The notes beneath the pieces were generated by a model, which ran no database searches, was not told the origin of the DNA, and was given only the letters and a program-made list of their open reading frames with translations. A stretch of 64,000 nt of DNA from Candidatus Levyibacteriota bacterium (GTDB taxonomy: Bacteria > Patescibacteriota > Microgenomatia > Levybacterales > UBA12049), in assembly GCA_963722305.1 (NCBI GenBank), contig CAVRKE010000001.1:245549-309548 (forward strand), in the 5' to 3' direction. Position 1 is the stretch's first letter. Every line of letters starts with the position of its first letter. The position numbers were made by a program, and so were the translations under genes. Positions 632 through 45,923 of the stretch are shown piece by piece.

Positions 632-892
632 CTAGTAGTTAATCTTTTCCTTGAAGTTCTTCAACATCTCGTTCAGTCTATCAGTTATCAACTTCTCTTT
701 ATTATCGTCTATATATTCACCAGAAAGAAGCTTCCAATCAACCTCTCCTTCGTTAATCTGCTCATCAACTTTGTCGATATTCCCGTCTTGCTTTATATAA
801 GCCTGCATTAAGACTCCGTTTTCAAGTTTGTAATAAGAACTCATGTCCTTATACGCATACCATTGATTATTTGTTTTTATATTTTTATCCAT
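632..892 (-). CDS. hypothetical protein, 1 nt downstream of the MTase on the same strand
   Basis: 86-aa ORF with charged composition and no recognised motif. Confidence 0.4.
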   Translation of the reverse strand: MDKNIKTNNQWYAYKDMSSYYKLENGVLMQAYIKQDGNIDKVDEQINEGEVDWKLLSGEYIDDNKEKLITDRLNEMLKNFKEKINY

Positions 893-893
893 A

Positions 894-2128
894 TTATAGA
901 AAGCTTTTATCAGAGATTATCTGATTATTTTCTCTAATATCCTCCTTATTAAAATTCTCGTTAATTATATACCTTTTTTCAAAATCTGACATAAACTCAA
1001 AACTTGAAGTGCCTTTATACCGAGAGGTTAAACTATGATAACTCTCTAATTCCTCACCATTTATATGGCTCATGATTGCTTTGCCTGCCATATAGCCTAA
1101 CTCAACAGGCACGGCATTTCCGATTTGTTTATAAACGCTTATTGGTTTTCCGACAAATTTCCAATCTTTAGGAAATTGTTGAATAAGCGCGTATTCTTGA
1201 ATACTTAGAGGTCGTAGCTCGTCCGGGTGAACGAGCATTGTGGCTGGCATTGTCGGGTGAGTAACCAAGGTAGGTGAGGGCTTATCCCAATTAAATCTTC
1301 TATAAAATCCCGTTTTCCCCCCAGAAAGGTAATAAGATTTACTCATTGCTTCTTCTTGAAGCTCATCTGGCAAATCCCTCCAATCCTGACCTCCGTTAAG
1401 AAGTTTTATATATTTTAAATGATTTTCTCTTAACTTAATAAAATCATGTTGTCCTTTTTGTATGCTTCCTATTGCGTCTCTAAGCGTTACGAGATTTAAT
1501 GCAGAAGTAGGTTTGGGAATTGCAATAGGATTCGAAGATAAAGCTCCGAACATGATAAATCTTTCTCTTCGTTGAGGAACAGAATAAAGAGAGCTGTCAA
1601 AGAGGTTGAAGGAATTGAATAACCAAGTTTTTCAAATTCTTTATAAAGAAAATAAACCACACTTTCTGGAACATCTTCAATTTTTTTATATTCCTGATAT
1701 TCGGGAGGAGTGTTCTCAAGTTTTGCATACAAAATTCCTCGAACATTTTCCATGATGAAATACTTAGGCTGTATTTCTCGCACATAGTCTAAAAATCTCA
1801 CAATTACGTTTCCGCGAAAGTCATCGAAACTTCTTCTATGTCCGGCAGTGCTAAATGCTTGACAAGGTGGCCCTCCAACAATTAAATCAACCTCGCCTGC
1901 TTTTAAATTTAAATCTTTTAGGATATCGCTTGGCTCAATAAGGTTAATGTCATTTTCATATACCTTTAATTCAGGCCTGTTTAGCTTGATTGTCTTAACG
2001 CATGTTGCGTCATTCTCAATACACGCGACGACTTTAAAGCCTGATTTCTCTATTCCCAGGTCTAAACCTAAAACGCCACTGAATAGCGATATCGCTTTTT
2101 TTGTTTTTCCTGACTTACGTTGCGTCAT
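894..2128 (-). CDS. DNA (cytosine-5)-methyltransferase, interrupted by an apparent frameshift (ORFs 1496..2128 and 894..1553 overlap)
   Basis: Motif I FSGVLGLDLG, motif IV GGPPCQAFS and motif VI ENV in the upstream ORF; motif X QIGNAVPV in the downstream ORF; junk-like tail after the TRD in the first ORF. Confidence 0.85.
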
Positions 2129-5850: not shown

Positions 5851-6543
5851 ATGAATATGAAGCAAAAAGATTTTAGTATCAATTACTCTTTGCGAAAACT
5901 TATTCAAGATAAGTTTATTCAAAGCATGGTAGCGGATTTATATAAGCACAGAAAAGAAACAGACCCGGTAACCATCTTTCTTCCGCTTACAAATGACCGT
6001 TTTAATAAAATCGCCTCTGATCCTGACCATGAAGGCATAGAAAATTTTGAGGAGCTTTGTCTAACTTTTGATGACAGTTTATTCTTAAATGAGCTTTTCA
6101 AGTTGAGAGTTTTGTCTAAAAAAGAATGCGCAGACGAGGATTTTTCGGCGTGTGTGAAAATAATCAATCCAGAGTTTATCGAACATATTCATGCGTGGAT
6201 AAAGGACAAAAATCTCATTATCAATTACGGCATTTTTAGCCTTCACACTTTTTCAGGAGAAGCATATTGTTTGGATAACAAATATGTTTTCCATGCCGGA
6301 AAGAGATCATTTCGGGTATTTCGATCCTTTCTCGAAGAGCCAACGCATATACTTGACTATCAAACCATTTATAAAATATTTTACAAAGGAGAAAAGAACA
6401 GACCGACTTACCGAATGAGTCCTACACAAATTCACCAAATAATAGGCGATATAAGGGAAAAACTACACATGAAGGGGGAACTCTCAAAATTGTTTGTCCC
6501 ATCATCAGATCAATACATCCTAAAATCAGATTTAGGCCTTTAA
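5851..6543 (+). CDS. DNA-binding protein with C-terminal OmpR/CadC-type winged-helix domain; candidate partner of the upstream repeat array
   Basis: C-terminal RVFRSFLEEPTHILDYQTIYKIFYKGEKNRPTYRMSPTQIHQIIGDIREKL matches the Trans_reg_C pattern (ends in an LRKKL-like motif). Confidence 0.5.
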   Translation: MNMKQKDFSINYSLRKLIQDKFIQSMVADLYKHRKETDPVTIFLPLTNDRFNKIASDPDHEGIENFEELCLTFDDSLFLNELFKLRVLSKKECADEDFSACVKIINPEFIEHIHAWIKDKNLIINYGIFSLHTFSGEAYCLDNKYVFHAGKRSFRVFRSFLEEPTHILDYQTIYKIFYKGEKNRPTYRMSPTQIHQIIGDIREKLHMKGELSKLFVPSSDQYILKSDLGL

Positions 6544-7146: not shown

Positions 7147-7311
7147 ATGGAAAATCGAAAAATCGATCAAAAAACAACAAAACAACTAGTTATAGATGCC
7201 GGGTTGCACCAAAGACTTAAGATGATGGCGGCGGAGCGCTCTATGACTATTAAAACGCTCGTGGAAGGGTGTCTAGCGGAACTTCTAGTAGTTAAAGGAG
7301 AGGATTTATGA
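7147..7311 (+). CDS. ribbon-helix-helix (CopG/Arc-like) small DNA-binding protein
   Basis: 54 aa MENRKIDQKTTKQLVIDAGLHQRLKMMAAERSMTIKTLVEGCLAELLVVKGEDL has the RHH beta-alpha-alpha pattern; not in the ORF track because it is short. Confidence 0.5.
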   Translation: MENRKIDQKTTKQLVIDAGLHQRLKMMAAERSMTIKTLVEGCLAELLVVKGEDL

Positions 7312-7469
7312 CACCGGAAGAATTTAAACAAGCAATTCAAGAATTTAAGGTCATTTACAAAGAGGTATTCGGCGTCGAATTGAATGGTGAAGAAGCAACT
7401 ATAAAAGCCCGGAGCTTACTTCAGTTGTTCGACTGCTTGACAACAGGAACAGGAAAGGGATTACAATGA
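7308..7469 (+). CDS. small hypothetical protein, translationally coupled (ATGA overlaps on both sides)
   Basis: 53 aa MTPEEFKQAIQEFKVIYKEVFGVELNGEEATIKARSLLQLFDCLTTGTGKGLQ. Confidence 0.35.
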   Translation: MTPEEFKQAIQEFKVIYKEVFGVELNGEEATIKARSLLQLFDCLTTGTGKGLQ

Positions 7470-9210
7470 AATTAGAAGAGATAGAAATGCAAAAGCATCC
7501 AATAACCAAAAACGAAAAAAAGTTTTATATTATATACTGCCGTAAATCATCTGAAGCAGAAGATAGACAAGTTGAAAGCATCAATGACCAACTTAAAGAA
7601 GCTGATAAAATAATTCTTCAAAGAAGTCTCGACGTTAAAGACAAACCGTTTACCGAATCGCGCTCAGCAAAAAAACCGGGTAGGCTAGAATTTAACCGAA
7701 TGATTGAGGAAATTGATAATAGGCATGACATTAAAGGCATTATTTGTTGGAAATTAAATAGACTTTTTAGAAATCCTGAAGATGAAGGTAAAATAAGACA
7801 ACGACTTTCAGACGGAAGAATCGAAGAAATAGTTACGCCTTCAAAAACATACCTAGAGGCTGATAGTGATTTTACAATGGCGGTAGAAGGAGCTCAAGCA
7901 CAAAGGTTTATCAGAGATTTGAAGGAAGATACTGCAAGAGGAATCAAATCAAAACTTGATAAGGGTATTGCTCCGATATTAGCTCCACCGGGTTATCGTA
8001 ATTGCCTTGAAAAAAGACAAGGGGAAAGAAACATAGAGCCTGTTCCCGATCAATTTACTTTATCAGAAACTTATTCGAGATATATCTTACCGGCAATTAC
8101 TCCGTTCAACAACTATGGTTTAAGGCAAAAGAATTGGGTATAAAAAGCAATAGGGGCAATATTATTAGCTTAACGCAACTTTATAAAATGCTGACAAACC
8201 CATTCTACACGGGCACAAGATATGTCTATGCGGACAAGCTATATACAAACGGAGTTCACAAAAGAATGTTAACCGACGAAGAATATAATCTTATACAAGA
8301 AATTCTTTCAAAGAGAACGCATCCAAGGGGCTCAATTCATATGGATTTACTAACTGGAATTATGAGATGTGGGGAATGCGATAGAACAATCACTACCGAA
8401 GTTAAAACCAAACACTATAAAAATGGCACATCTCAAACATTTGTTTATTATCGCTGCACCAAGAAATGGAAAGGTAAAAAATGCACTCAACCTTATATTC
8501 GCGCAGAATTACTTGAAGAGCAAGTAATGAAGTATCTTGATGGATTACAACTTTCTCCACGCTTTGTGGAATGGGCAATCAAATGGCTTCAAGTAATGCA
8601 CGGGAAGCAAGAAAAATTACGGGAAGCAAAATATAAAACGATAGAACAAGCATATCAAGAAGTTGTTAAAAAGATTGTTAGAGTGGTTGACTTAACCCTT
8701 TCCGGGATGTTAACAGCCGAAGAAGGCATATTAAAGAAGCAAGAATTAGAGGTAGAAAAGAAAAGATTATCTGAAGAATTAGAAATGATTGATACTCATG
8801 TTTCAGAATGGAGCAGTCTTGCTATTCAAACTTTCGACCTTGTTAAAAACATCAAGGAAAGATTTACTAGCGGGTCTATTGAACAAAGAAAAACAATACT
8901 CCGCGTTATTGGCTCGAACCTAATATTAAAAGACAAAACTATTCAAATTGAGATTCGAAAACCTTTTGAGTATATACAAAAGGTTGTAAGTCAATTAAAC
9001 GAAGATAAACGGCTCGAACCTATCGATTTGCCTGATATAACAAGCCAAGAAGCCTTTTTGCACTCTCCAAATATAATAGTGGGTGGAAGACGGGTGCTGC
9101 CCCCGCTACTTCCTGGACCACAACCAGGCGCTCTACTGTTGAGCTACATCCACCGAGTGAAACGAGGTAGTACTATACCGAAGGTACAGTACACCGCACC
9201 TCAATTATAA
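7466..9210 (+). CDS. large serine recombinase (integrase/resolvase type) with an apparent +1 frameshift near 8048-8060; the C-terminal tail reads through an antisense tRNA-like sequence
   Basis: Catalytic YIIYCRKSS...DRQ; resolvase-domain GRLEFNRMIEEI; recombinase domain resumes in the other frame (IRNLFEIYLTGNYSVQQLWFKAKELGIKSNRG...NPFYTG); zinc ribbon CGECDRT...YYRCTKKWKGKKC; coiled coil. Confidence 0.85.
9082..9154 (-). tRNA. degenerate tRNA-His(GUG)-like sequence, possibly an att-site remnant or pseudo-tRNA
   Basis: G-1 plus GUGGAUG acceptor pairs with CUUCCAC and C73 (one U-U mismatch); D-arm GCUC/GAGC; anticodon stem CCUGG/CCAGG with loop UUGUGGU; T-stem GCGGG/CCCGU but a non-canonical T-loop GGCAGCA and a short D-loop. 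Confidence 0.35.
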
Positions 9211-9854: not shown

Positions 9855-10744
9855 GATGCAGGCTTGGTGGCTAAAAGTATGTTGTACGAAGTTGCCCCGG
9901 AATTAAATAATCCTTCCTGGTACATCCCCCATAAGCTATTTTTAACCATAAAATCGGGGACTATTCTTAATTTACCCGCAGAAACTGCCAGTGGATAAGT
10001 AACTCTGCACATCATTCTCATTCTTGCTGCCGAAGGCATTACTTCATTTGTTAGGTCTGAATTAGCTACAGCTGTAAATCCTGCCTGTTGCATAACTTTA
10101 GCTATATTTGCTGCTGTCCTAAAATCGTTAAAACAACCGGACACCTCTTGCCCTACTTTCATCTGACTTATTTCTTGCGGAGTTAAATCTGTTCTTCCTA
10201 AAAACGTAGCGACAATTATTAATCTTCCGCCTGGTTTTAGCATCCTAAAAGCTTCTTTAATAAACTCATCCGGATCACTTGCGTGTTCCAGGCTTTCCAA
10301 AGACCATACTACGTCAAATGATTGATCCGGAAAGGGCATTTGCTGATAATCTCCTTCCTCAAAAGTGACCAAATCGGAAAGTCCTTTCTTCCGGGCAATC
10401 TTTCTACCTTCTTCTATTTGTTTCTGCACAATATTTAAACCGACAACCTTCGCTCCTCTATTTTTAGCCAACCAAATACCGCTACCTCCAATCCCGCAAC
10501 CCGCATCCAAAACCCGATCACCGGGTTTTATAGCGATCATATCTGCAAGCACTCTATTTTCATTGATAATTGCTTCGAAACGGTTTTTCATACCTTTTTC
10601 CCACAGTCCGTAATGTAAACCGTTTGTTCCACGGTGCCATGCGAGCCTATAAAAAAGGTGAGCTTTTTCATAGTACCGAATAATTCTGCTTTTATGCTCC
10701 TCCTCAGATGAGTTTAATCTAAGCGGTCTGTCTTCAATACTCAT
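9851..10744 (-). CDS. class I SAM-dependent methyltransferase
   Basis: Motif I VLDAGCGIGGSG, acidic motif II, LKPGGRLII. Confidence 0.8.
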   Translation of the reverse strand: MSIEDRPLRLNSSEEEHKSRIIRYYEKAHLFYRLAWHRGTNGLHYGLWEKGMKNRFEAIINENRVLADMIAIKPGDRVLDAGCGIGGSGIWLAKNRGAKVVGLNIVQKQIEEGRKIARKKGLSDLVTFEEGDYQQMPFPDQSFDVVWSLESLEHASDPDEFIKEAFRMLKPGGRLIIVATFLGRTDLTPQEISQMKVGQEVSGCFNDFRTAANIAKVMQQAGFTAVANSDLTNEVMPSAARMRMMCRVTYPLAVSAGKLRIVPDFMVKNSLWGMYQEGLFNSGATSYNILLATKPAS

Positions 10745-10782
10745 AGAACCCGATTTTAGCAGTTATTTTATCTTTATTCAAA

Positions 10783-11562
10783 CTATAAGTTATTGTTAAG
10801 GTGGTAGGGGACTCTTAATTTGTAGGCATTATTTTCGGCAAACTCAATAATTTTTTTTGCCCCCGGATACATTTGCTCAATCGAAAAAGCCGAATTCTTT
10901 TTATCAAAATACAAAAGTAGAACCGGATCCGCTTCTTTGTAGGTAAAACCGAACTCTTTTTCGTCGGTTTGCTCTCCCCATAAACCCGCTGAAGGATGTT
11001 TTGAAATAATTAACTCCGGAATTTTTAAATATTTTGCCAATTCATAAACCTGAGTTTTGTACAGATGGACAATCGGTTCAATATCGGAAGCCGCGTCGCC
11101 AAAACGAGTGAAGTAGCCCAAAAAATGTTCCGAACGGTTTTCCGTACCAACCACCATGGCATTATTTTTTTTGGCAGTGTCAAAAAGCATCATCATACGG
11201 ACCCGCGCCATAATATTTCCCTTACGGACCAAATCTTTTTCGGGAACCTTTAATTCTTTGATCAAACTGTCCGCCATTATTTTGATTGAGAAAATCTGCA
11301 GATTAGATTTTGGAATATTTAAACTTTGTAGCAGTTGGTTAATATCATCAGCTTCATCCTTAAAATAGGGAAGATGTAAAATTTTGATGTTTTGAGAAGG
11401 TATTGCCTTGCTTAAAAGCGCCAAACTGACGGCCGAATCGATTCCACCGGAAACTCCGATCACTGCTTTTTTGATTTTTTGGTCCAAAAAAGTTTGCCTT
11501 AAAAAAGAGACAATTTTGGAAACCTCTTCTTCTGTGTCTATTTCCAACAAGTCTTTAAACAT
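10783..11562 (-). CDS. nadE: NH3-dependent NAD+ synthetase
   Basis: PP-loop IGVSGGIDSAV (SGGxDS); likely start MFKDLLEI inside the longer ORF. Confidence 0.85.
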   Translation of the reverse strand: MFKDLLEIDTEEEVSKIVSFLRQTFLDQKIKKAVIGVSGGIDSAVSLALLSKAIPSQNIKILHLPYFKDEADDINQLLQSLNIPKSNLQIFSIKIMADSLIKELKVPEKDLVRKGNIMARVRMMMLFDTAKKNNAMVVGTENRSEHFLGYFTRFGDAASDIEPIVHLYKTQVYELAKYLKIPELIISKHPSAGLWGEQTDEKEFGFTYKEADPVLLLYFDKKNSAFSIEQMYPGAKKIIEFAENNAYKLRVPYHLNNNL

Positions 11563-12359: not shown

Positions 12360-12620
12360 ATGACGAGATTTTATTACACTTATATTTTACAATCGAAAAC
12401 AGATAAGAAGTTTTATACTGGTTTTACAAATGATTTAATCGGAAGATTTAAGCTTCATCAGACTGGAAAAGTTTCCTCAACAAAAAACAGAACACCATTT
12501 AAGTTAATTTATTATGAAGCGTGCTTAACTCAAAAAGACGCGACAAGAAGGGAGAAGTATTTAAAAACCTATCTGGGTAAAATGTTATTACGCAATAGGC
12601 TTAAATCTTATTTAACATGA
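12360..12620 (+). CDS. GIY-YIG nuclease domain protein
   Basis: YYTYILQSKTDKKFYTGFTNDLIGRFKLHQ matches the GIY-YIG signature. Confidence 0.75.
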   Translation: MTRFYYTYILQSKTDKKFYTGFTNDLIGRFKLHQTGKVSSTKNRTPFKLIYYEACLTQKDATRREKYLKTYLGKMLLRNRLKSYLT

Positions 12621-13590: not shown

Positions 13591-13620
13591 AAAAATCCCC
13601 TTTTTTAGGGGATTTTTAAT
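13591..13620 (+). terminator. rho-independent terminator after tRNA-Gly
   Basis: AAAAATCCCC-TTTTTT-AGGGGATTTTT hairpin plus T-run. Confidence 0.7.
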
Positions 13621-13721
13621 TGACCTTGATTACAATCATTGAATTAAACCGAATTGTAAGGTAAAATTGTAATACGTTAGTCTCGACCCCTGCCTCGAAT
13701 TTCGGGGTCGAGTCTATACGC

Positions 13722-13806
13722 GCCGCGGTGGTGGAATGGCAGACACGAGGGCCTTAAGAGCCTTTGCCTTTAATCGGGCGTGAGAGTTCGACTCTCTCTC
13801 GCGGCA
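13722..13806 (+). tRNA. tRNA-Leu(UAA), type II
   Basis: Acceptor GCCGCGG/UCGCGGC, D-arm GUG-GAAUGGCAGA-CAC, anticodon loop CUUAAGA, long variable arm, T-arm GAGAG-UUCGACU-CUCUC. Confidence 0.85.
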
Positions 13807-13826
13807 CTTCTTCATAAACTTATTTC

Positions 13827-14007
13827 CGGGGAATAGCTCAGTTGGTAGAGCGCGCGGTTTGCCTGCCCGCCATAGCTACGGAGTGTAGTTCATCGGTAGA
13901 ACGCTCGGTTTGGGACCGAGAAGTAGGAGGTCCAATTCCTCTCACTCCGACAAGGCAAGTGCAGGCGGGGGACCGTGAGGCCGGAGGTTCGAGTCCTCTT
14001 TCCCCGA
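13827..14007 (+). tRNA. split/intron-containing tRNA-Ala(UGC)-like gene; the ~108-nt insertion in the anticodon loop is itself a complete tRNA-Pro
   Basis: 5' half CGGGGAA-UA-GCUC-AGUUGGUA-GAGC-G-CGCGG-UUUGC; 3' half (A)CCGUG-AGGCC-GGAGG-UUCGAGU-CCUCU-UUCCCCG-A; acceptor 7/7 bp, anticodon stem 5/5 (one G-U), canonical D and T loops. Confidence 0.5.
13879..13950 (+). tRNA. tRNA-Pro(UGG), nested inside the tRNA-Ala-like gene
   Basis: Acceptor CGGAGUG/CACUCCG, D-arm GUUC-AUCGGUA-GAAC, anticodon stem CUCGG/CCGAG with loop UUUGGGA, T-arm GGAGG-UCCAAUU-CCUCU (C55 unusual), discriminator A. Confidence 0.6.
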
Positions 14008-14078
14008 CTAAAGAGGACGAGAAGCCAGCTCGAAGAGCAGTCCTGAGACGAAGCATAAGGAAGTCCTCTTTCCCCGAC
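13992..14078. repeat. 17-bp perfect direct repeat AGTCCTCTTTCCCCGAC (13992..14008 and 14062..14078) duplicating the T-arm/acceptor 3' end; the first copy is followed by its complement AAAGAGGAC, forming a hairpin
   Basis: Direct reading. Confidence 0.8.
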
Positions 14079-14080
14079 AA

Positions 14081-15043
14081 CTATCCATGCTGCGGAGGAG
14101 TAATGCCTTCCGACTTTAAGGAGTAATCCAAAAGCTCAATCATTTCACCCCTTCTATCATCACTTCCCAAAATGACGGCAATAATTTTGTGTCCGCCGTA
14201 ATCTAAGTAAGTCACTAAACATAAACCCGCTTCGGGCGTGTAACCGGTTTTAACGCCTTTAACACCGGGGTAACTGGTCAAAAGATTAGTCTGGTTTTCC
14301 AGATAAAAAGCTTTGTGCTCCACAGTGTAGGGGATATCGTAATCAAAAGTCGAAACGACCTGGTCAAACAAGGGAAAGTTAGAAATGGCATAGTCTGTAA
14401 TCACTAATAAATCATAGGCGGTGGTATATTGCTTGCCGTCCCCCTCAAGCCCGGTCGGGTTGGTAAAATTAGTATCGGAAAGACCCAACGATTTTACCTT
14501 ATCATTCATCGCTTTAATAAAAAATTCTCTGCCCGGAAAATTTTCGGCCAGCACCTCTGCCGCATCATTGCCGCTAGTTAGTATCAACCCATACAATAAA
14601 TCACTCAGAGTGAGCGTTTCACCGGTACTTAAGCCCATTGAATCTTCTCCGACCAAATCGTCCTGTTTAACAACGTAAGCATCATCCAGTCTTTTATTCT
14701 CTAAGGCAATGACGGCGGTCATAATTTTTGTGAGGGAGGCCATCGGCAATCTTTCTTGCGGGTTTTTGGAGTAGAGCACTTGTTTTGAAGTTGTATCGTA
14801 AATTAACGCCGACTTGGCGCTAATTTGCGGTGCCTGAAAACTAACCGAAATTTTGTTCCTTAAAGAAGGCAGCCAGAGATTTAGGCTTGAAACTTGCTTG
14901 TTAAGAAAAGCTGTTAAAAAATCGGGGACAGGGGAAACAATTGGACCTTTATTATTCGTCACTTTCGCGTAAATATTCAGCGAGGCAAAACCTAAAATTC
15001 CTAAAAAACACAAAAAAAACAAAAACAGCATAACTTTCTTCAT
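14081..15043 (-). CDS. D-alanyl-D-alanine carboxypeptidase (serine-type PBP5/6 family)
   Basis: SxxK ASLTKIMT, SGN LTSGNDAA, KTG VKGVKTGYT, N-terminal signal peptide. Confidence 0.85.
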   Translation of the reverse strand: MKKVMLFLFFLCFLGILGFASLNIYAKVTNNKGPIVSPVPDFLTAFLNKQVSSLNLWLPSLRNKISVSFQAPQISAKSALIYDTTSKQVLYSKNPQERLPMASLTKIMTAVIALENKRLDDAYVVKQDDLVGEDSMGLSTGETLTLSDLLYGLILTSGNDAAEVLAENFPGREFFIKAMNDKVKSLGLSDTNFTNPTGLEGDGKQYTTAYDLLVITDYAISNFPLFDQVVSTFDYDIPYTVEHKAFYLENQTNLLTSYPGVKGVKTGYTPEAGLCLVTYLDYGGHKIIAVILGSDDRRGEMIELLDYSLKSEGITPPQHG

Positions 15044-19332: not shown

Positions 19333-19629
19333 ATGGATCAAAAAATACGCAGAATTCATCCACCGGCATTTAAAGCCAGAGTTGCTCTGGAGGCAATTAA
19401 GGAACAAAAAACAATTGCGGAGCTGTCAAGTATGTACGGTGTACATTCAACCCAAATAACGAAATGGAAACGCCGGGCGTTGGAGATTCTCTCGCAAGGG
19501 TTTTCAGAACATCTTATTCAACGGAAACGGGATGACCGTGAGCTGGTACAGGAATTGTATCGGCAAATAGGAAGATTAAAAGTCGAAGTAGACTTTCTTA
19601 AAAAAAAGATGGGCATCTTCGACGAGTAG
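19333..19629 (+). CDS. IS3-family transposase OrfA (HTH plus leucine zipper)
   Basis: AFKARVALEAIKEQKTIAELSSMYGVHSTQITKWKRR is an IS3 OrfA HTH; ends after an A8G run. Confidence 0.85.
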   Translation: MDQKIRRIHPPAFKARVALEAIKEQKTIAELSSMYGVHSTQITKWKRRALEILSQGFSEHLIQRKRDDRELVQELYRQIGRLKVEVDFLKKKMGIFDE

Positions 19630-20470
19630 GGATATCCTTACTCCCGGAGAAATTGCTCTGCACATTAACAAAACAGAAAGCGTATTACCAAAGAGTATAC
19701 GGGCTGATCTTCTGGATATTTCCAGATCAAGTTTGTACTATCAGCCAAGACCGGTTAAACCCGAGGCACTCATTTTAATGAACAGAATTGATGAGGTATA
19801 TACTGCCCACCCTTTTTATGGTTCAAGACGTATGGCAAAAGAGGTTGGTGTTAACAGAAAACAGGCACAACGCCTGATGCGTGAAATGGGCTATGAGGCA
19901 TTGTATCCGAAGCCTAATTTGAGTAAACCCGATAAACAACACATGTTCTATCCGTATTTACTCAAAGGAGTAGTTGCAGGATATCCAAATCATATCTGGG
20001 GCACAGATATTACGTATATTCGGATGAAACATGGGTTTGTATATTTAACTGCCTTTCTTGATTGGTTTACCAGATTTGTTGTTTCCTGGAAGCTCTCAAT
20101 TACCCTTGAAACAGACTTTTGTTTTGATGCTGCAACTGAAGCAATTGAGAAATTCGGAAGACCAACCATTATTAATGAAGATCAGGGATCACAAAATACC
20201 GATCATCTGATGACAGATCTCTGGGAAAATCACAATGTCAAAATCAGCATGGACTCACGGGGACGGGCACTGGACAATATCTTCACCGAGAGGTTATGGA
20301 GGAGTGTTAAATATGAAGAGGTATACTTAAAAGAATACGCTACTGTTTTGGAAGCAAAAGAAAACATTGAAAACTATTTTTACTTTTACAATTATGAAAG
20401 AAAACACCAATCGCTTAATTACAGAACACCGGCTGAAATATATTTTGGAAAGGAGGAAAACTTAGTCTAA
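19592..20470 (+). CDS. IS3-family transposase OrfB (DDE integrase core); reading frame is +1, not the canonical -1, relative to OrfA
   Basis: LDISRSSLYYQPR..., GTDITYIRMKHGFVYLTAFLDWFTRFVVSWKL, NEDQGSQNT (DDE). Confidence 0.85.
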   Translation, partial: TFLKKRWASSTSRDILTPGEIALHINKTESVLPKSIRADLLDISRSSLYYQPRPVKPEALILMNRIDEVYTAHPFYGSRRMAKEVGVNRKQAQRLMREMGYEALYPKPNLSKPDKQHMFYPYLLKGVVAGYPNHIWGTDITYIRMKHGFVYLTAFLDWFTRFVVSWKLSITLETDFCFDAATEAIEKFGRPTIINEDQGSQNTDHLMTDLWENHNVKISMDSRGRALDNIFTERLWRSVKYEEVYLKEYATVLEAKENIENYFYFYNYERKHQSLNYRTPAEIYFGKEENLV

Positions 20471-24857: not shown

Positions 24858-25448
24858 ATGAGAACTTCTCGTTATTTTCTTTCTTTGTTTATTCTCCTTG
24901 TCTTTCTGATTAGTGGTTTTCTATTTTTGTCGCATAACCAGCCACCAACCGAAAAAACTTCTTCTTCGCCGACGCCAATGGTCATTGGCACTTCTACCAG
25001 TTCCTTAAATAGTAAATGCCATGCGATACACATTAACTCGGTGGATCCGCAGGCTTATCTGCCCGACCCGGTCTGTACTCCCGGAGTGATTGATCCGGCG
25101 GTCACCCAAGCCAATCTTTTTACGACCATTTGCCATGCCGGCTATACCGAAACGGTCCGGCCGCCGGTTTCCTATACTAATTCCTTGAAAAAGCAGCAAA
25201 TCATAGATTATGGGTACGAAGATACAAATATGAAAGACTATGAAGAAGACCATTTTATTTCGCTGGAACTTGGCGGCAGTCCGACCGACCCTCAGAATCT
25301 TTGGCCCGAACCCCATCCGTCTCTTAATGAAAAAGATACGGTTGAAAATTATCTGCATGACCAGGTCTGCTCCGGAAAAATCTCCCTGTCTCTGGCTCAG
25401 CAGGAGATTACCAAAAACTGGTATCAGATTTATCAAGAAATTCACTAG
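24858..25448 (+). CDS. membrane-anchored HNH endonuclease domain protein
   Basis: N-terminal TM; EEDHFISLELGGSPTDPQNLWPE matches the HNH DH..GG...N pattern. Confidence 0.45.
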   Translation: MRTSRYFLSLFILLVFLISGFLFLSHNQPPTEKTSSSPTPMVIGTSTSSLNSKCHAIHINSVDPQAYLPDPVCTPGVIDPAVTQANLFTTICHAGYTETVRPPVSYTNSLKKQQIIDYGYEDTNMKDYEEDHFISLELGGSPTDPQNLWPEPHPSLNEKDTVENYLHDQVCSGKISLSLAQQEITKNWYQIYQEIH

Positions 25449-25464
25449 GGATATTAATTTTAAG

Positions 25465-25713
25465 ATGTTTTACGTTTATATTCTCAGGACTTCTGCCAAC
25501 ACTTTGTATATTGGCCAAACCAATAATTTGGAGCGGCGGATGAAAGAACATAAAAGCAAAAATTCCCAATCCGCCAAATACCTGCAGCGTTTCACCTCGT
25601 ATGAATTAGTCTATTCCGAAAAACACAAAACCAGAAAATCTGCGATGCGGCGCGAGGCATATCTCAAGACCTGGACAAAAGAGAGAAAAGAAAAATTGAT
25701 TCAAGGACTATAG
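25465..25713 (+). CDS. GIY-YIG nuclease domain protein
   Basis: MFYVYILRTSANTLYIGQTNNLERRMKEHK; internal start within the longer ORF. Confidence 0.7.
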   Translation: MFYVYILRTSANTLYIGQTNNLERRMKEHKSKNSQSAKYLQRFTSYELVYSEKHKTRKSAMRREAYLKTWTKERKEKLIQGL

Positions 25714-45695: not shown

Positions 45696-45778
45696 GCTGA
45701 GGTAGCTCGAAGATGTGGTCAAGGCATACTTTTCTGAAGGAAAAGTACTAATGCCTGTTCGACTCAGTCGAACACGCC
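45696..45778 (+). pseudogene. tRNA-Phe-like degenerate copy: same 5' acceptor and anticodon loop CUGAAGG, no matching 3' acceptor; ends in a perfect GTTCGAC-TCA-GTCGAAC hairpin
   Basis: Aligned to the downstream tRNA-Phe: GCUGAGGUAGC... and anticodon stem-loop UACUUUU-CUGAAGG-AAAAGUA. Confidence 0.35.
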
Positions 45779-45801
45779 ACTTTGAAAAGATATGTAGCTC
45801 T

Positions 45802-45874
45802 GCTGAGATAGCCAAGGTGGTCAAGGCACCTGTCTGAAGAACAGGCTATGCGTGTTCGACTCACGCTCTCAGCA
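45802..45874 (+). tRNA. tRNA-Phe(GAA)
   Basis: Acceptor GCUGAGA/UCUCAGC, anticodon stem CCUGU/ACAGG with loop CUGAAGA, T-arm GCGUG-UUCGACU-CACGC, discriminator A. Confidence 0.75.
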
Positions 45875-45923
45875 CTAGACGGTTTTTTAGCTTCGCGAAA
45901 ATTTACCACATTGAACCAAGATT

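Follow-up and report, generated by a model that had tools for sequence, protein, structure and literature searches.

What is a complete tRNA gene doing inside the anticodon loop of another tRNA gene? The question is raised by positions 13827-14007 of a stretch of 64,000 nt (here called the window) from Candidatus Levyibacteriota bacterium, a member of the Candidate Phyla Radiation (CPR, Patescibacteria; assembly GCA_963722305.1, contig CAVRKE010000001.1, positions 245,549 to 309,548 of the forward strand). An earlier interpretation made from the letters alone, the sequence-only reading, had described this locus as a tRNA-Pro(UGG) nested within a split tRNA-Ala(UGC)-like gene. A full tRNA-Pro does lie in an anticodon loop, but the outer gene is not a tRNA-Ala. 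Both genes are of the type tRNA-Pro(UGG), and the interrupting DNA belongs to a recurrent family of short cassettes with GC-rich inverted-repeat ends, which has the appearance of a so far undescribed mode of tRNA gene replacement.

The outer gene, called type A in the following, is found in two halves. Its 5' half, positions 1-35 of the tRNA, is at 13827..13861 on the plus strand and ends ...CGCGG UUUG, and its 3' half, positions 36-73, is at 13970..14007 (+) and starts GGA CCGUG. The insert between them, previously put at about 108 nt, is exactly 108 nt long (13862..13969, +). It begins with the left arm CCTGCCCGCC (13862..13871, +) and the linker ATAGCTA (13872-13878), continues with a complete tRNA-Pro(UGG) of another type, type B (13879..13950, +), and ends with the right linker and arm CAAGGCAAGT-GCAGGCGGG (13951..13969, +). 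The flanks of the inner tRNA measure 17 and 19 nt; 36 nt of the insert are non-tRNA and 72 are tRNA. Both the left arm and the right flank are single-copy in the window. That the GC-rich arms CCTGCCCGC and GCAGGCGGG are able to pair, as had been suggested, is seen in the predicted folds, in which the right arm pairs with the left one and the rod formed by arms and linkers stacks onto the outer anticodon stem. The minimum-free-energy fold of 13827-14008 is a cloverleaf within a cloverleaf (-76.6 kcal/mol, z = -2.46). The acceptor stem, D-arm, anticodon stem and T-arm of the outer gene are as first described, with one G-U pair in the anticodon stem, and the two halves, if joined, form a perfect cloverleaf that is accepted by ARAGORN. 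This program reports 12 tRNAs in the window, including the inner tRNA-Pro(UGG) at 13879-13951, which is also recognized by Rfam (RF00005, 61.5 bits; gathering threshold 29).

The identity of the outer gene depends on where exactly it is broken. Bacterial tRNA-Pro is marked by C1:G72, A73, G35 and G36, and tRNA-Ala requires G3:U70. C1:G72, A73 and G3:C70 can be read directly from the outer sequence, a G3:U70 pair is lacking, and the intact orthologues are tRNA-Pro(UGG); tRNA-Ala(UGC) is therefore the wrong name. The anticodon loop of these orthologues is UUUGGGA, in the context CGCGGTTTGGGACCGTG, and the sequence of the intact type A gene is CGGGGAATAGCTCAGTTGGTAGAGCGCGCGGTTTGGGACCGTGAGGTCGGAGGTTCGAGTCCTCTTTCCCCGA. 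The break follows UUUG (13861|13862) and not UUUGC as had been assumed, the C being the first base of the insert. Given the joined halves, ARAGORN returns Pro(UGG) with the loop UUUG+GGA, and Ala(UGC) if the following C is taken as exon. Thus, a boundary shift of one base suffices to turn Pro(UGG) into Ala(UGC). Mis-called anticodons caused by shifted boundaries are the same pitfall that has been met with tRNA introns of Patescibacteria (PMC13011429). The insertion is at anticodon position 35/36 (UUUG|GGA); a boundary at 34/35 is also possible, because the G is repeated at the junction. ARAGORN in intron mode (introns of 0-200 nt), which had been suggested as a check, does not report the outer gene at all.

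The neighbouring gene encodes a D-Ala-D-Ala carboxypeptidase, and we compared the window with contigs that encode close homologues of it. The flanking genes are bacterial, and the carboxypeptidase homologues carry Levybacteria (CPR/Patescibacteria) names. In the locus L004 (loci are numbered with an L throughout), whose neighbour protein is 92% identical, an uninterrupted tRNA-Pro(UGG) adjoins the end of the carboxypeptidase gene in the way the outer gene does. The same position holds an intact tRNA-Pro(UGG) in L002 (neighbour protein 88%), L290 (83%) and L009, as well as one with a single stem variant in L005 (84%). With the outer 5' half as query, 185,579 species genomes yielded 46 loci, 12 of which are this tRNA-Pro, all from CPR; all twelve are intact, that is, an interrupted copy was found in 0/12. 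Over positions 1-35 the outer 5' half of the window agrees in every base with the intact genes of L002, L004, L290 and these 12 species genomes, and the 3' half differs from all intact orthologues only in the variable loop (GGCC vs GGTC). With this agreement at 72/73 positions, the likeness of the two halves to a split gene is not due to chance. The cassette, 13862-13969, is missing from the intact orthologues. Judged by its identity elements and its orthologues, the outer gene is the resident Levybacteria tRNA-Pro(UGG). Furthermore, the 3' junction of the nest is 100% identical in the Logan contig L001 and the 5' junction is also present in the metagenome contig L138; with both junctions reproduced, the insert is not an assembly artefact.

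What is known of the inner gene? It has C1:G72, A73 and the T-loop UCCAAUU, and CCA is not encoded. A metagenome scan by a pattern of D-arm and anticodon gave at least 120 loci, from which type B is seen to be common in CPR contigs, mostly free-standing in a Leu(UAA)-Pro-Gly cluster. Over 38 distinct family sequences, 98.7% of the cells of the cloverleaf pair and 9 pairs show compensatory change; the covariation score was reached by 0/500 shuffles. Among the matches listed, 47/114 copies, the inner gene of the window included, have C55 in the T-loop instead of the near-universal U55, which therefore is a family trait and not damage. As far as can be judged from such comparisons, type B is a functional tRNA family and a lineage distinct from type A, and the inner tRNA-Pro(UGG) is probably the functional gene of this cell. 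Two patterns for the inner tRNA found none in viral contigs.

The inner tRNA is identical (72/72) to free-standing genes of L062, L100 and L288. These occupy exactly the type A position after tRNA-Leu, and the loci are close relatives of the window (neighbour protein 87% in L288 and 86% in L100). At this position close relatives thus possess either type A or type B, and the window has type B nested in type A. Intact, nested and type-B-only states at one locus mean that both the nested and the fully replaced state exist among close relatives. Conservation in relatives, another check that had been put forward, gives a divided answer: the nest recurs in other CPR contigs, but the close relatives are either intact (L004, L002, L290) or have type B only (L288, L100). 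The conserved upstream partner of tRNA-Pro(UGG) is tRNA-Leu(UAA) (13722..13807, +; ARAGORN and Rfam), and the order Leu-Pro(-Gly) is kept in L002, L009, L100, L288, L290, L059, L069, L164 and others. Upstream of tRNA-Leu(UAA) a consensus scan, which was the only basis used, picked out a promoter-like site, TTGAAT-17-TAAAAT (13639..13667, +), which probably drives a Leu-Pro transcript spanning the nest. A terminator-like hairpin (13598-13611) separates it from tRNA-Gly.

The cassette is not confined to this genome. A scan for the arm motif CCYGCCYGC...GCRGGCRGG over all CPR loci collected (~1 Mb) recovered the cassette of the window and, in all, ten distinct elements from many genomes, only one of them in the 64-kb window. 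Five of the armed elements, 108-118 nt in length, carry a tRNA and five are bare hairpins of 33-47 nt. Like Pro(UGG) within Pro(UGG) at 35/36 in the window, Gly(UCC) is found within Gly(UCC) in L077 and Arg(UCU) within an otherwise intact Arg(UCU) in L085, both at exactly 35/36. In L153 (also L124) Arg(UCU) sits at about 35/36 of a decayed tRNA-Arg, and in L158 Leu(CAG) lies in the D-arm of a Leu-like remnant. The bare hairpins are located within dead tRNA remnants (L059, L076, L083) or outside any recognisable tRNA (L108, L111). The left arm of the window (13862-13871) is present also in cassettes or hairpins of L059, L076, L077, L083, L085, L108, L111, L153 and L158, and the reverse complement of its right flank (13951-13969) is, with 2 mismatches, the left flank of the tRNA-Arg nest of L153. 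The cassette of the window itself, with 1 mismatch and a 3-nt deletion, occurs in L138, joined to a different outer 3' half.

Further nests were found with other flanks. In L059, L069, L158 and L164 the arrangement GCCCGCCTGACTTGAAATGA[tRNA]CAAGTCATTTCGGGCAGG lies within other tRNA-Pro genes, and among the matches listed L056/L082 represent a third flank type, again with Pro nests, while stacked tRNA-Pro fragments are present in L146/L167, L087, L091 and L106. Between L059, L158 and L164 the 20-nt left flank of the L059 type does not vary, nor does the 18-nt right flank between L059 and L158, although the stems of the cargo differ between the three loci. The ends of the cassette are better conserved than its cargo. 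Relative to the cargo, which is always co-oriented with the outer gene, the arms are found facing either way; every cassette folds, by prediction, as a rod coaxial with the outer anticodon stem, with differing linker sequences. Removal of the insert restores cognate tRNAs that ARAGORN regards as valid, and the insertions in L077 and L085 are exact, without a target-site duplication.

All six independent nests are like-in-like. By a rough estimate, six such nests would arise by random insertion among about 40 tRNA species with a chance of about 1e-9 or less, so that under random insertion into tRNA genes the rule cannot be put down to chance.

Some neighbouring observations may be added here. 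In L146/L167 (about 4230-4460 in L167) three tRNA-Pro are stacked, an outer 5' half that breaks off after UUUG, another 5' half that stops after GGUU and finally a complete gene; this stack has neither 3' halves nor GC arms. The two tRNA-Arg(UCU) genes of the L085 nest (1204-1314, minus strand), inner and outer, are identical over a core of 41 nt (positions 8-48) and differ in their acceptor and T arms; gene conversion of one by the other, or a very closely related donor, may account for this. In L059 (about 690-800, minus strand) and in L161, downstream of tRNA-Pro, a tRNA-Gly(UCC) follows directly after GCGGG + CCTGCCCGCC...GGCGGG. The arm motif there ends exactly at the 5' end of the tRNA, either as an insertion with a 5-nt repeat or as a leader hairpin.

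The fate of the two genes in a nest is different. The inner gene is complete in every nest. The outer halves are intact in the window, L077 and L085. In the Pro nest of L158 the outer D-arm is lost, L164 lacks the right flank and the 3' half, with a clean junction, the outer D-arm carries extra hairpins in L059 and L069, the outer loop of L056 cannot be brought back to 7 nt and the outer gene of L153 is a fragment. Together with the complete inner genes, the anticodon that both genes share and the lack of group I or bulge-helix-bulge (BHB) features treated below, these decayed copies lead us to regard the outer gene as a relic and to take the progression from nest to eroded nest to clean replacement as the natural history of such loci. 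The disrupted pseudogene that the sequence-only reading had offered as its second choice comes closer to this than a split gene does; a decayed one-off rearrangement does not fit an insert that belongs to a recurrent cassette family and holds what is probably the working tRNA-Pro(UGG).

We consider it fairly probable that palindromic, non-autonomous cassettes of one family place a replacement tRNA within the anticodon of the gene for the same tRNA. A single resident tRNA-Pro(UGG) would have been split between positions 35 and 36 by a non-coding cassette of 108 bp with inverted-repeat ends, moved by an enzyme acting in trans. The Leu-Pro transcript would read through the nest, with arms and linkers folding into a rod that extends the outer anticodon stem and presents the inner cloverleaf. 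RNase P, 3' processing and CCA addition would free the inner tRNA to serve as the tRNA-Pro(UGG) of the cell; the outer halves would be by-products that are not re-joined. Later these halves would erode, or would be deleted by recombination between short repeats common to the inner and outer ends, leaving the new tRNA type alone at the old position. As an essential single-copy gene is destroyed at the moment its substitute is supplied, the cassette could not be lost, and this would explain its persistence in genomes that shed spare DNA.

Several points weigh against this reading. We infer the production of the inner tRNA and the lack of a spliced outer one from the DNA, and the mobility of the cassette from the distribution of its elements only. 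Beyond the 64-kb view there may be a second tRNA-Pro(UGG), an RtcB ligase or a nuclease elsewhere in the genome. In the material searched no transposase or recombinase could be tied to the arms and no target-site duplication was found, and the window holds one copy only. The arms are only 9-10 nt long and stand in either orientation relative to the cargo. All frequencies are rough, since a scan with at least 120 loci supplied the Pro nests and the motif scan of about 1 Mb those with Gly, Arg and Leu(CAG). Finally, the outer halves are still essentially perfect in the window, L077 and L085, and the outer 5' half is 35/35 identical in L138 though the adjacent spacer has diverged. Perfect halves are consistent with a recent or horizontal arrival; they are also consistent with selection on the halves.

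A bolder version, in which the armed cassettes are active selfish elements of tRNA replacement and the cargo gene or its transcript targets insertion to the cognate 35/36 site, appears to us doubtful. If it were true, the like-in-like rule would be mechanistic rather than a matter of survivors of random insertion, and the element would make itself indispensable by exchanging the host tRNA for its own.

How else might a tRNA have come to lie here? One explanation regards the nest as an open reading frame (ORF)-less derivative of homing-endonuclease traffic: small GIY-YIG nuclease genes enter tRNA genes and bring tRNA sequence along, and a cut in the resident tRNA-Pro was repaired from foreign tRNA-Pro DNA. 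In 644 kb of tRNA-Pro loci we count, among the matches listed, 32 GIY-YIG ORFs, 14 of them at most 300 nt from tRNA-Pro and all of these 14 on the same strand. Small GIY-YIG ORFs in tRNA genes (Pro, Leu UAA, Arg, Gly) are located in L070 (4627-4887, minus strand), L107 (about 10660-10990), L083 (about 6060-6413), L117 (about 7190-7540) and L005 (5633-5990). In L070 (Pro), L107 (Leu UAA) and L083 (Arg) the old 5' half reaches up to the anticodon loop and is then followed by the GIY-YIG ORF, after which a complete tRNA comes in L070 and L107; in L083 the contig breaks off within the ORF. Direct repeats of the tRNA 3' end enclose the ORF in L005 and L117. The nearest such ORF to the nest in the window, a GIY-YIG-only frame of 86 amino acids between tRNA-Arg(UCU) and the next gene (12360-12620, +), is missing from that place in L002, and SegB of phage T4 is a proven GIY-YIG homing endonuclease targeting tRNA genes (PMC2330249). 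The nest, however, contains neither an ORF nor a recognisable remnant of one within its flanks of 17 and 19 nt. What homology-directed repair would produce are hybrids or half-duplicated genes of the kind seen in L070, and not a whole tRNA between intact halves; the conserved arms are also found without any GIY-YIG gene, and the 86-amino-acid proteins consist of the bare catalytic domain with no DNA-binding domain. Taken together, this origin of the nest seems to us improbable. A second GIY-YIG-like ORF is situated at about 25234-25710 of the window.

A trace of similar layout does exist next to the nest. The 3' end of the outer tRNA is repeated directly over 17 nt, AGTCCTCTTTCCCCGAC (13992-14008 and 14062-14078, +), with a 54-nt spacer between the copies. 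The architecture of this repeat matches, in layout only, the tRNA 3'-end repeats flanking the GIY-YIG ORFs in L005 and L117. This resemblance can be counted in favour of homing-endonuclease traffic, but the spacer does not align with GIY-YIG leaders. A homologous repeat with spacer is present in L002 and missing in L004 and L290, and no integrase gene adjoins it. By this pattern 13992-14078 looks like a separate, older scar of an insertion at the tRNA 3' end.

Other candidate movers were rejected. A tyrosine integrase using the anticodon loop as overlap would make the loop of the cargo the attachment site and lead to hybrid tRNAs, not to a nest. The junctions of the L059 type, but not those of the window, agree with a serine recombinase that uses a shared central dinucleotide, and an IS200/IS605-style insertion guided by a fixed tetranucleotide disagrees with the unrelated left neighbours of the bare hairpins. 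A search of viral contigs for armed tRNA cassettes gave 113 arm-pattern matches, all of them due to chance: they lie in GC-rich contigs and enclose no tRNA.

Could the insert instead be a true intervening sequence? The inner tRNA and its flanks would then be removed by RNase P and RNase Z, or by RNase III acting on the rod, and the outer halves would be re-joined or would work as a two-piece tRNA, so that the locus yields two tRNA-Pro molecules. The intact outer halves in the window, L077 and L085, the rods that remain continuous with the outer anticodon stem despite differing linkers, and flanks more conserved than the cargo all speak for it, as does the site, since tRNA introns of Patescibacteria show an enrichment at 35/36, in genes for Asn, Asp and Tyr (PMC13011429). 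Bacterial tRNA introns are group I introns (PMC4033280). The insert shares with these the location in the anticodon loop (35/36 or 34/35). For a group I intron we looked for a core detectable by covariance models and a length of about 200 nt or more, with the 5' exon ending in U and the intron in G. No group I intron was matched by Rfam over 13600-14200 even at E up to 10, and no intron or ribozyme family at the locus at gathering or permissive thresholds. That the insert is well below group I size, as noted from the beginning, is confirmed by its 108 nt, of which 72 are the inner tRNA and only 36 are left for anything else. With the 35/36 boundary the 5' exon ends in G in the window and in C in the Gly and Arg nests, not in the U that group I introns need, and the combination U...G is obtained only with the 34/35 boundary of the window. 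Nor do the predicted folds contain a BHB motif (two 3-nt bulges, 4-bp helix); they are continuous rods with single-base bulges.

Splicing would, moreover, bring no gain in decoding, as inner and outer gene share the anticodon. The outer gene is truncated, deleted or burdened with further hairpins in L056, L059, L069, L153, L158 and L164, always next to an intact inner one, and bare hairpins of the family are seen only in dead remnants or between genes. We therefore regard an intervening sequence as very unlikely, and the functional split tRNA, with halves that persist or are re-joined, which had been the first proposal for this locus, is not supported on the same grounds: the same codons would be decoded, a ribozyme core and a BHB motif are lacking, and the outer halves decay in older nests.

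A one-off illegitimate recombination, a dead locus with a working tRNA-Pro elsewhere or an assembly chimera is hardly credible: the exact insert is indeed restricted to this genome and L138, the view is limited to 64 kb of the genome and L001 ends within the inner tRNA, but both junctions were recovered in independent assemblies and lie in unique flank sequence rather than in k-mers common to both tRNAs, the same architecture and arms recur in at least six independent contexts and with three tRNA identities, and close relatives have, as their only tRNA-Pro at this position, a gene identical to the inner one.

The replacement cassette may be compared with known systems. It resembles miniature inverted-repeat transposable elements (MITEs) and repetitive extragenic palindromic sequences or bacterial interspersed mosaic elements (REP/BIME) in being short, non-coding and GC-rich within an AT-rich genome, in its imperfect inverted-repeat ends and its folding as one hairpin with paired arms, and in its members, scattered over many genomes in either orientation and with no enzyme of their own. 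It differs from them because some cassettes carry a complete tRNA and sit inside the cognate tRNA gene, mostly at exactly 35/36, with neither a target duplication nor a partner transposase found. We know of no MITE or REP with a tRNA cargo nested in a cognate tRNA gene, and in the literature on nested tRNA genes, replacement tRNAs and MITEs in Patescibacteria no description of this arrangement was found.

Integrative elements that use tRNA genes, such as tyrosine-integrase islands and prophages, insert at the anticodon loop, the T-loop or the 3' end. They likewise interrupt the target and keep up the tRNA supply, with the anticodon loop as a classic target, and the 17-nt repeat of the window resembles the duplication of an attachment site. 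But such elements measure kilobases, encode an integrase and bring only the displaced part of the tRNA, which results in a hybrid gene and a direct repeat, whereas the cassette has 108 bp, no ORF and a whole foreign tRNA, leaves the old gene broken and is not flanked by a direct repeat.

SegB, from the tRNA cluster of phage T4, is selfish and spreads with tRNA genes by attacking tRNA regions that lack it, and in related CPR loci GIY-YIG ORFs show tight linkage to genes for tRNA-Pro, Leu, Gly and Arg; SegB, however, recognises the T-arm region and acts through replacement by recombination without nesting, and the nest of the window has no ORF (PMC2330249). The group I introns of Patescibacteria share with the cassette the phylum, the anticodon loop, the preferred position 35/36 and the fact that the interrupted tRNA is missed or mis-assigned, but the cassette lacks a ribozyme, the 5' exon, taken to end at 35/36, has a G or C as its last base and the cargo is a tRNA; the hosts are Pro, Gly and Arg here versus Asn, Asp, Tyr, Met, Phe and Thr in 95 complete genomes (PMC13011429, Table 1). 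Intron-containing and split tRNAs of archaea, which are processed at BHB motifs (PMC4033280), likewise have a short non-ribozyme interruption that pairs at the junction and occur in ultrasmall, reduced genomes; the differences are the bacterial host, the lack of two 3-nt bulges around a 4-bp helix, the decaying outer genes and the redundant tRNA that is carried along.

Other features of the window touch on tRNA genes or mobile DNA. A tRNA-His(GUG)-like sequence (9082-9153, minus strand; Rfam 44 bits, not called by ARAGORN) has a D-loop without GG and the T-loop GGCAGCA, and overlaps the 3' end of a large serine recombinase (7466-9210, +) that is split in two ORFs (Resolvase; Recombinase + zinc ribbon). 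Just upstream of the real tRNA-Phe(GAA) (45802-45875) lies a decayed tRNA-Phe-like copy at about 45696-45780 (+), GCTGAGGTAGCTC...GGTCAAGGCA...CTGAAG...TTCGACTCAG, for which Rfam has no match at E values as high as 1. Possibly this genome retains here another relic of tRNA replacement. An ORF at 19733-20470 (+) with an integrase core (rve) and HTH_21 domains, preceded by an ORF at 19333-19629, looks from its domains like an IS3-type transposase. Neither the IS3-type nor the serine-recombinase genes are adjacent to the cassette.

For annotation, the consequence is that gene finders miss the outer gene and that simple intron logic misassigns its anticodon, giving Ala for Pro. Estimates of genome completeness make use of tRNA counts. 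The like-in-like rule, the fixed site at 35/36 and the logic of persistence are testable. The nests also raise the questions of what recognises position 35/36, which is favoured by the group I introns of Patescibacteria too, and whether the abundant 86-amino-acid GIY-YIG genes drive the exchange of tRNA genes in these bacteria. If our interpretation is true, it would explain how single-copy essential tRNA genes come to be replaced by foreign ones in the smallest bacterial genomes, and the cassette would be a case of selfish DNA that survives in a streamlined genome by becoming essential.

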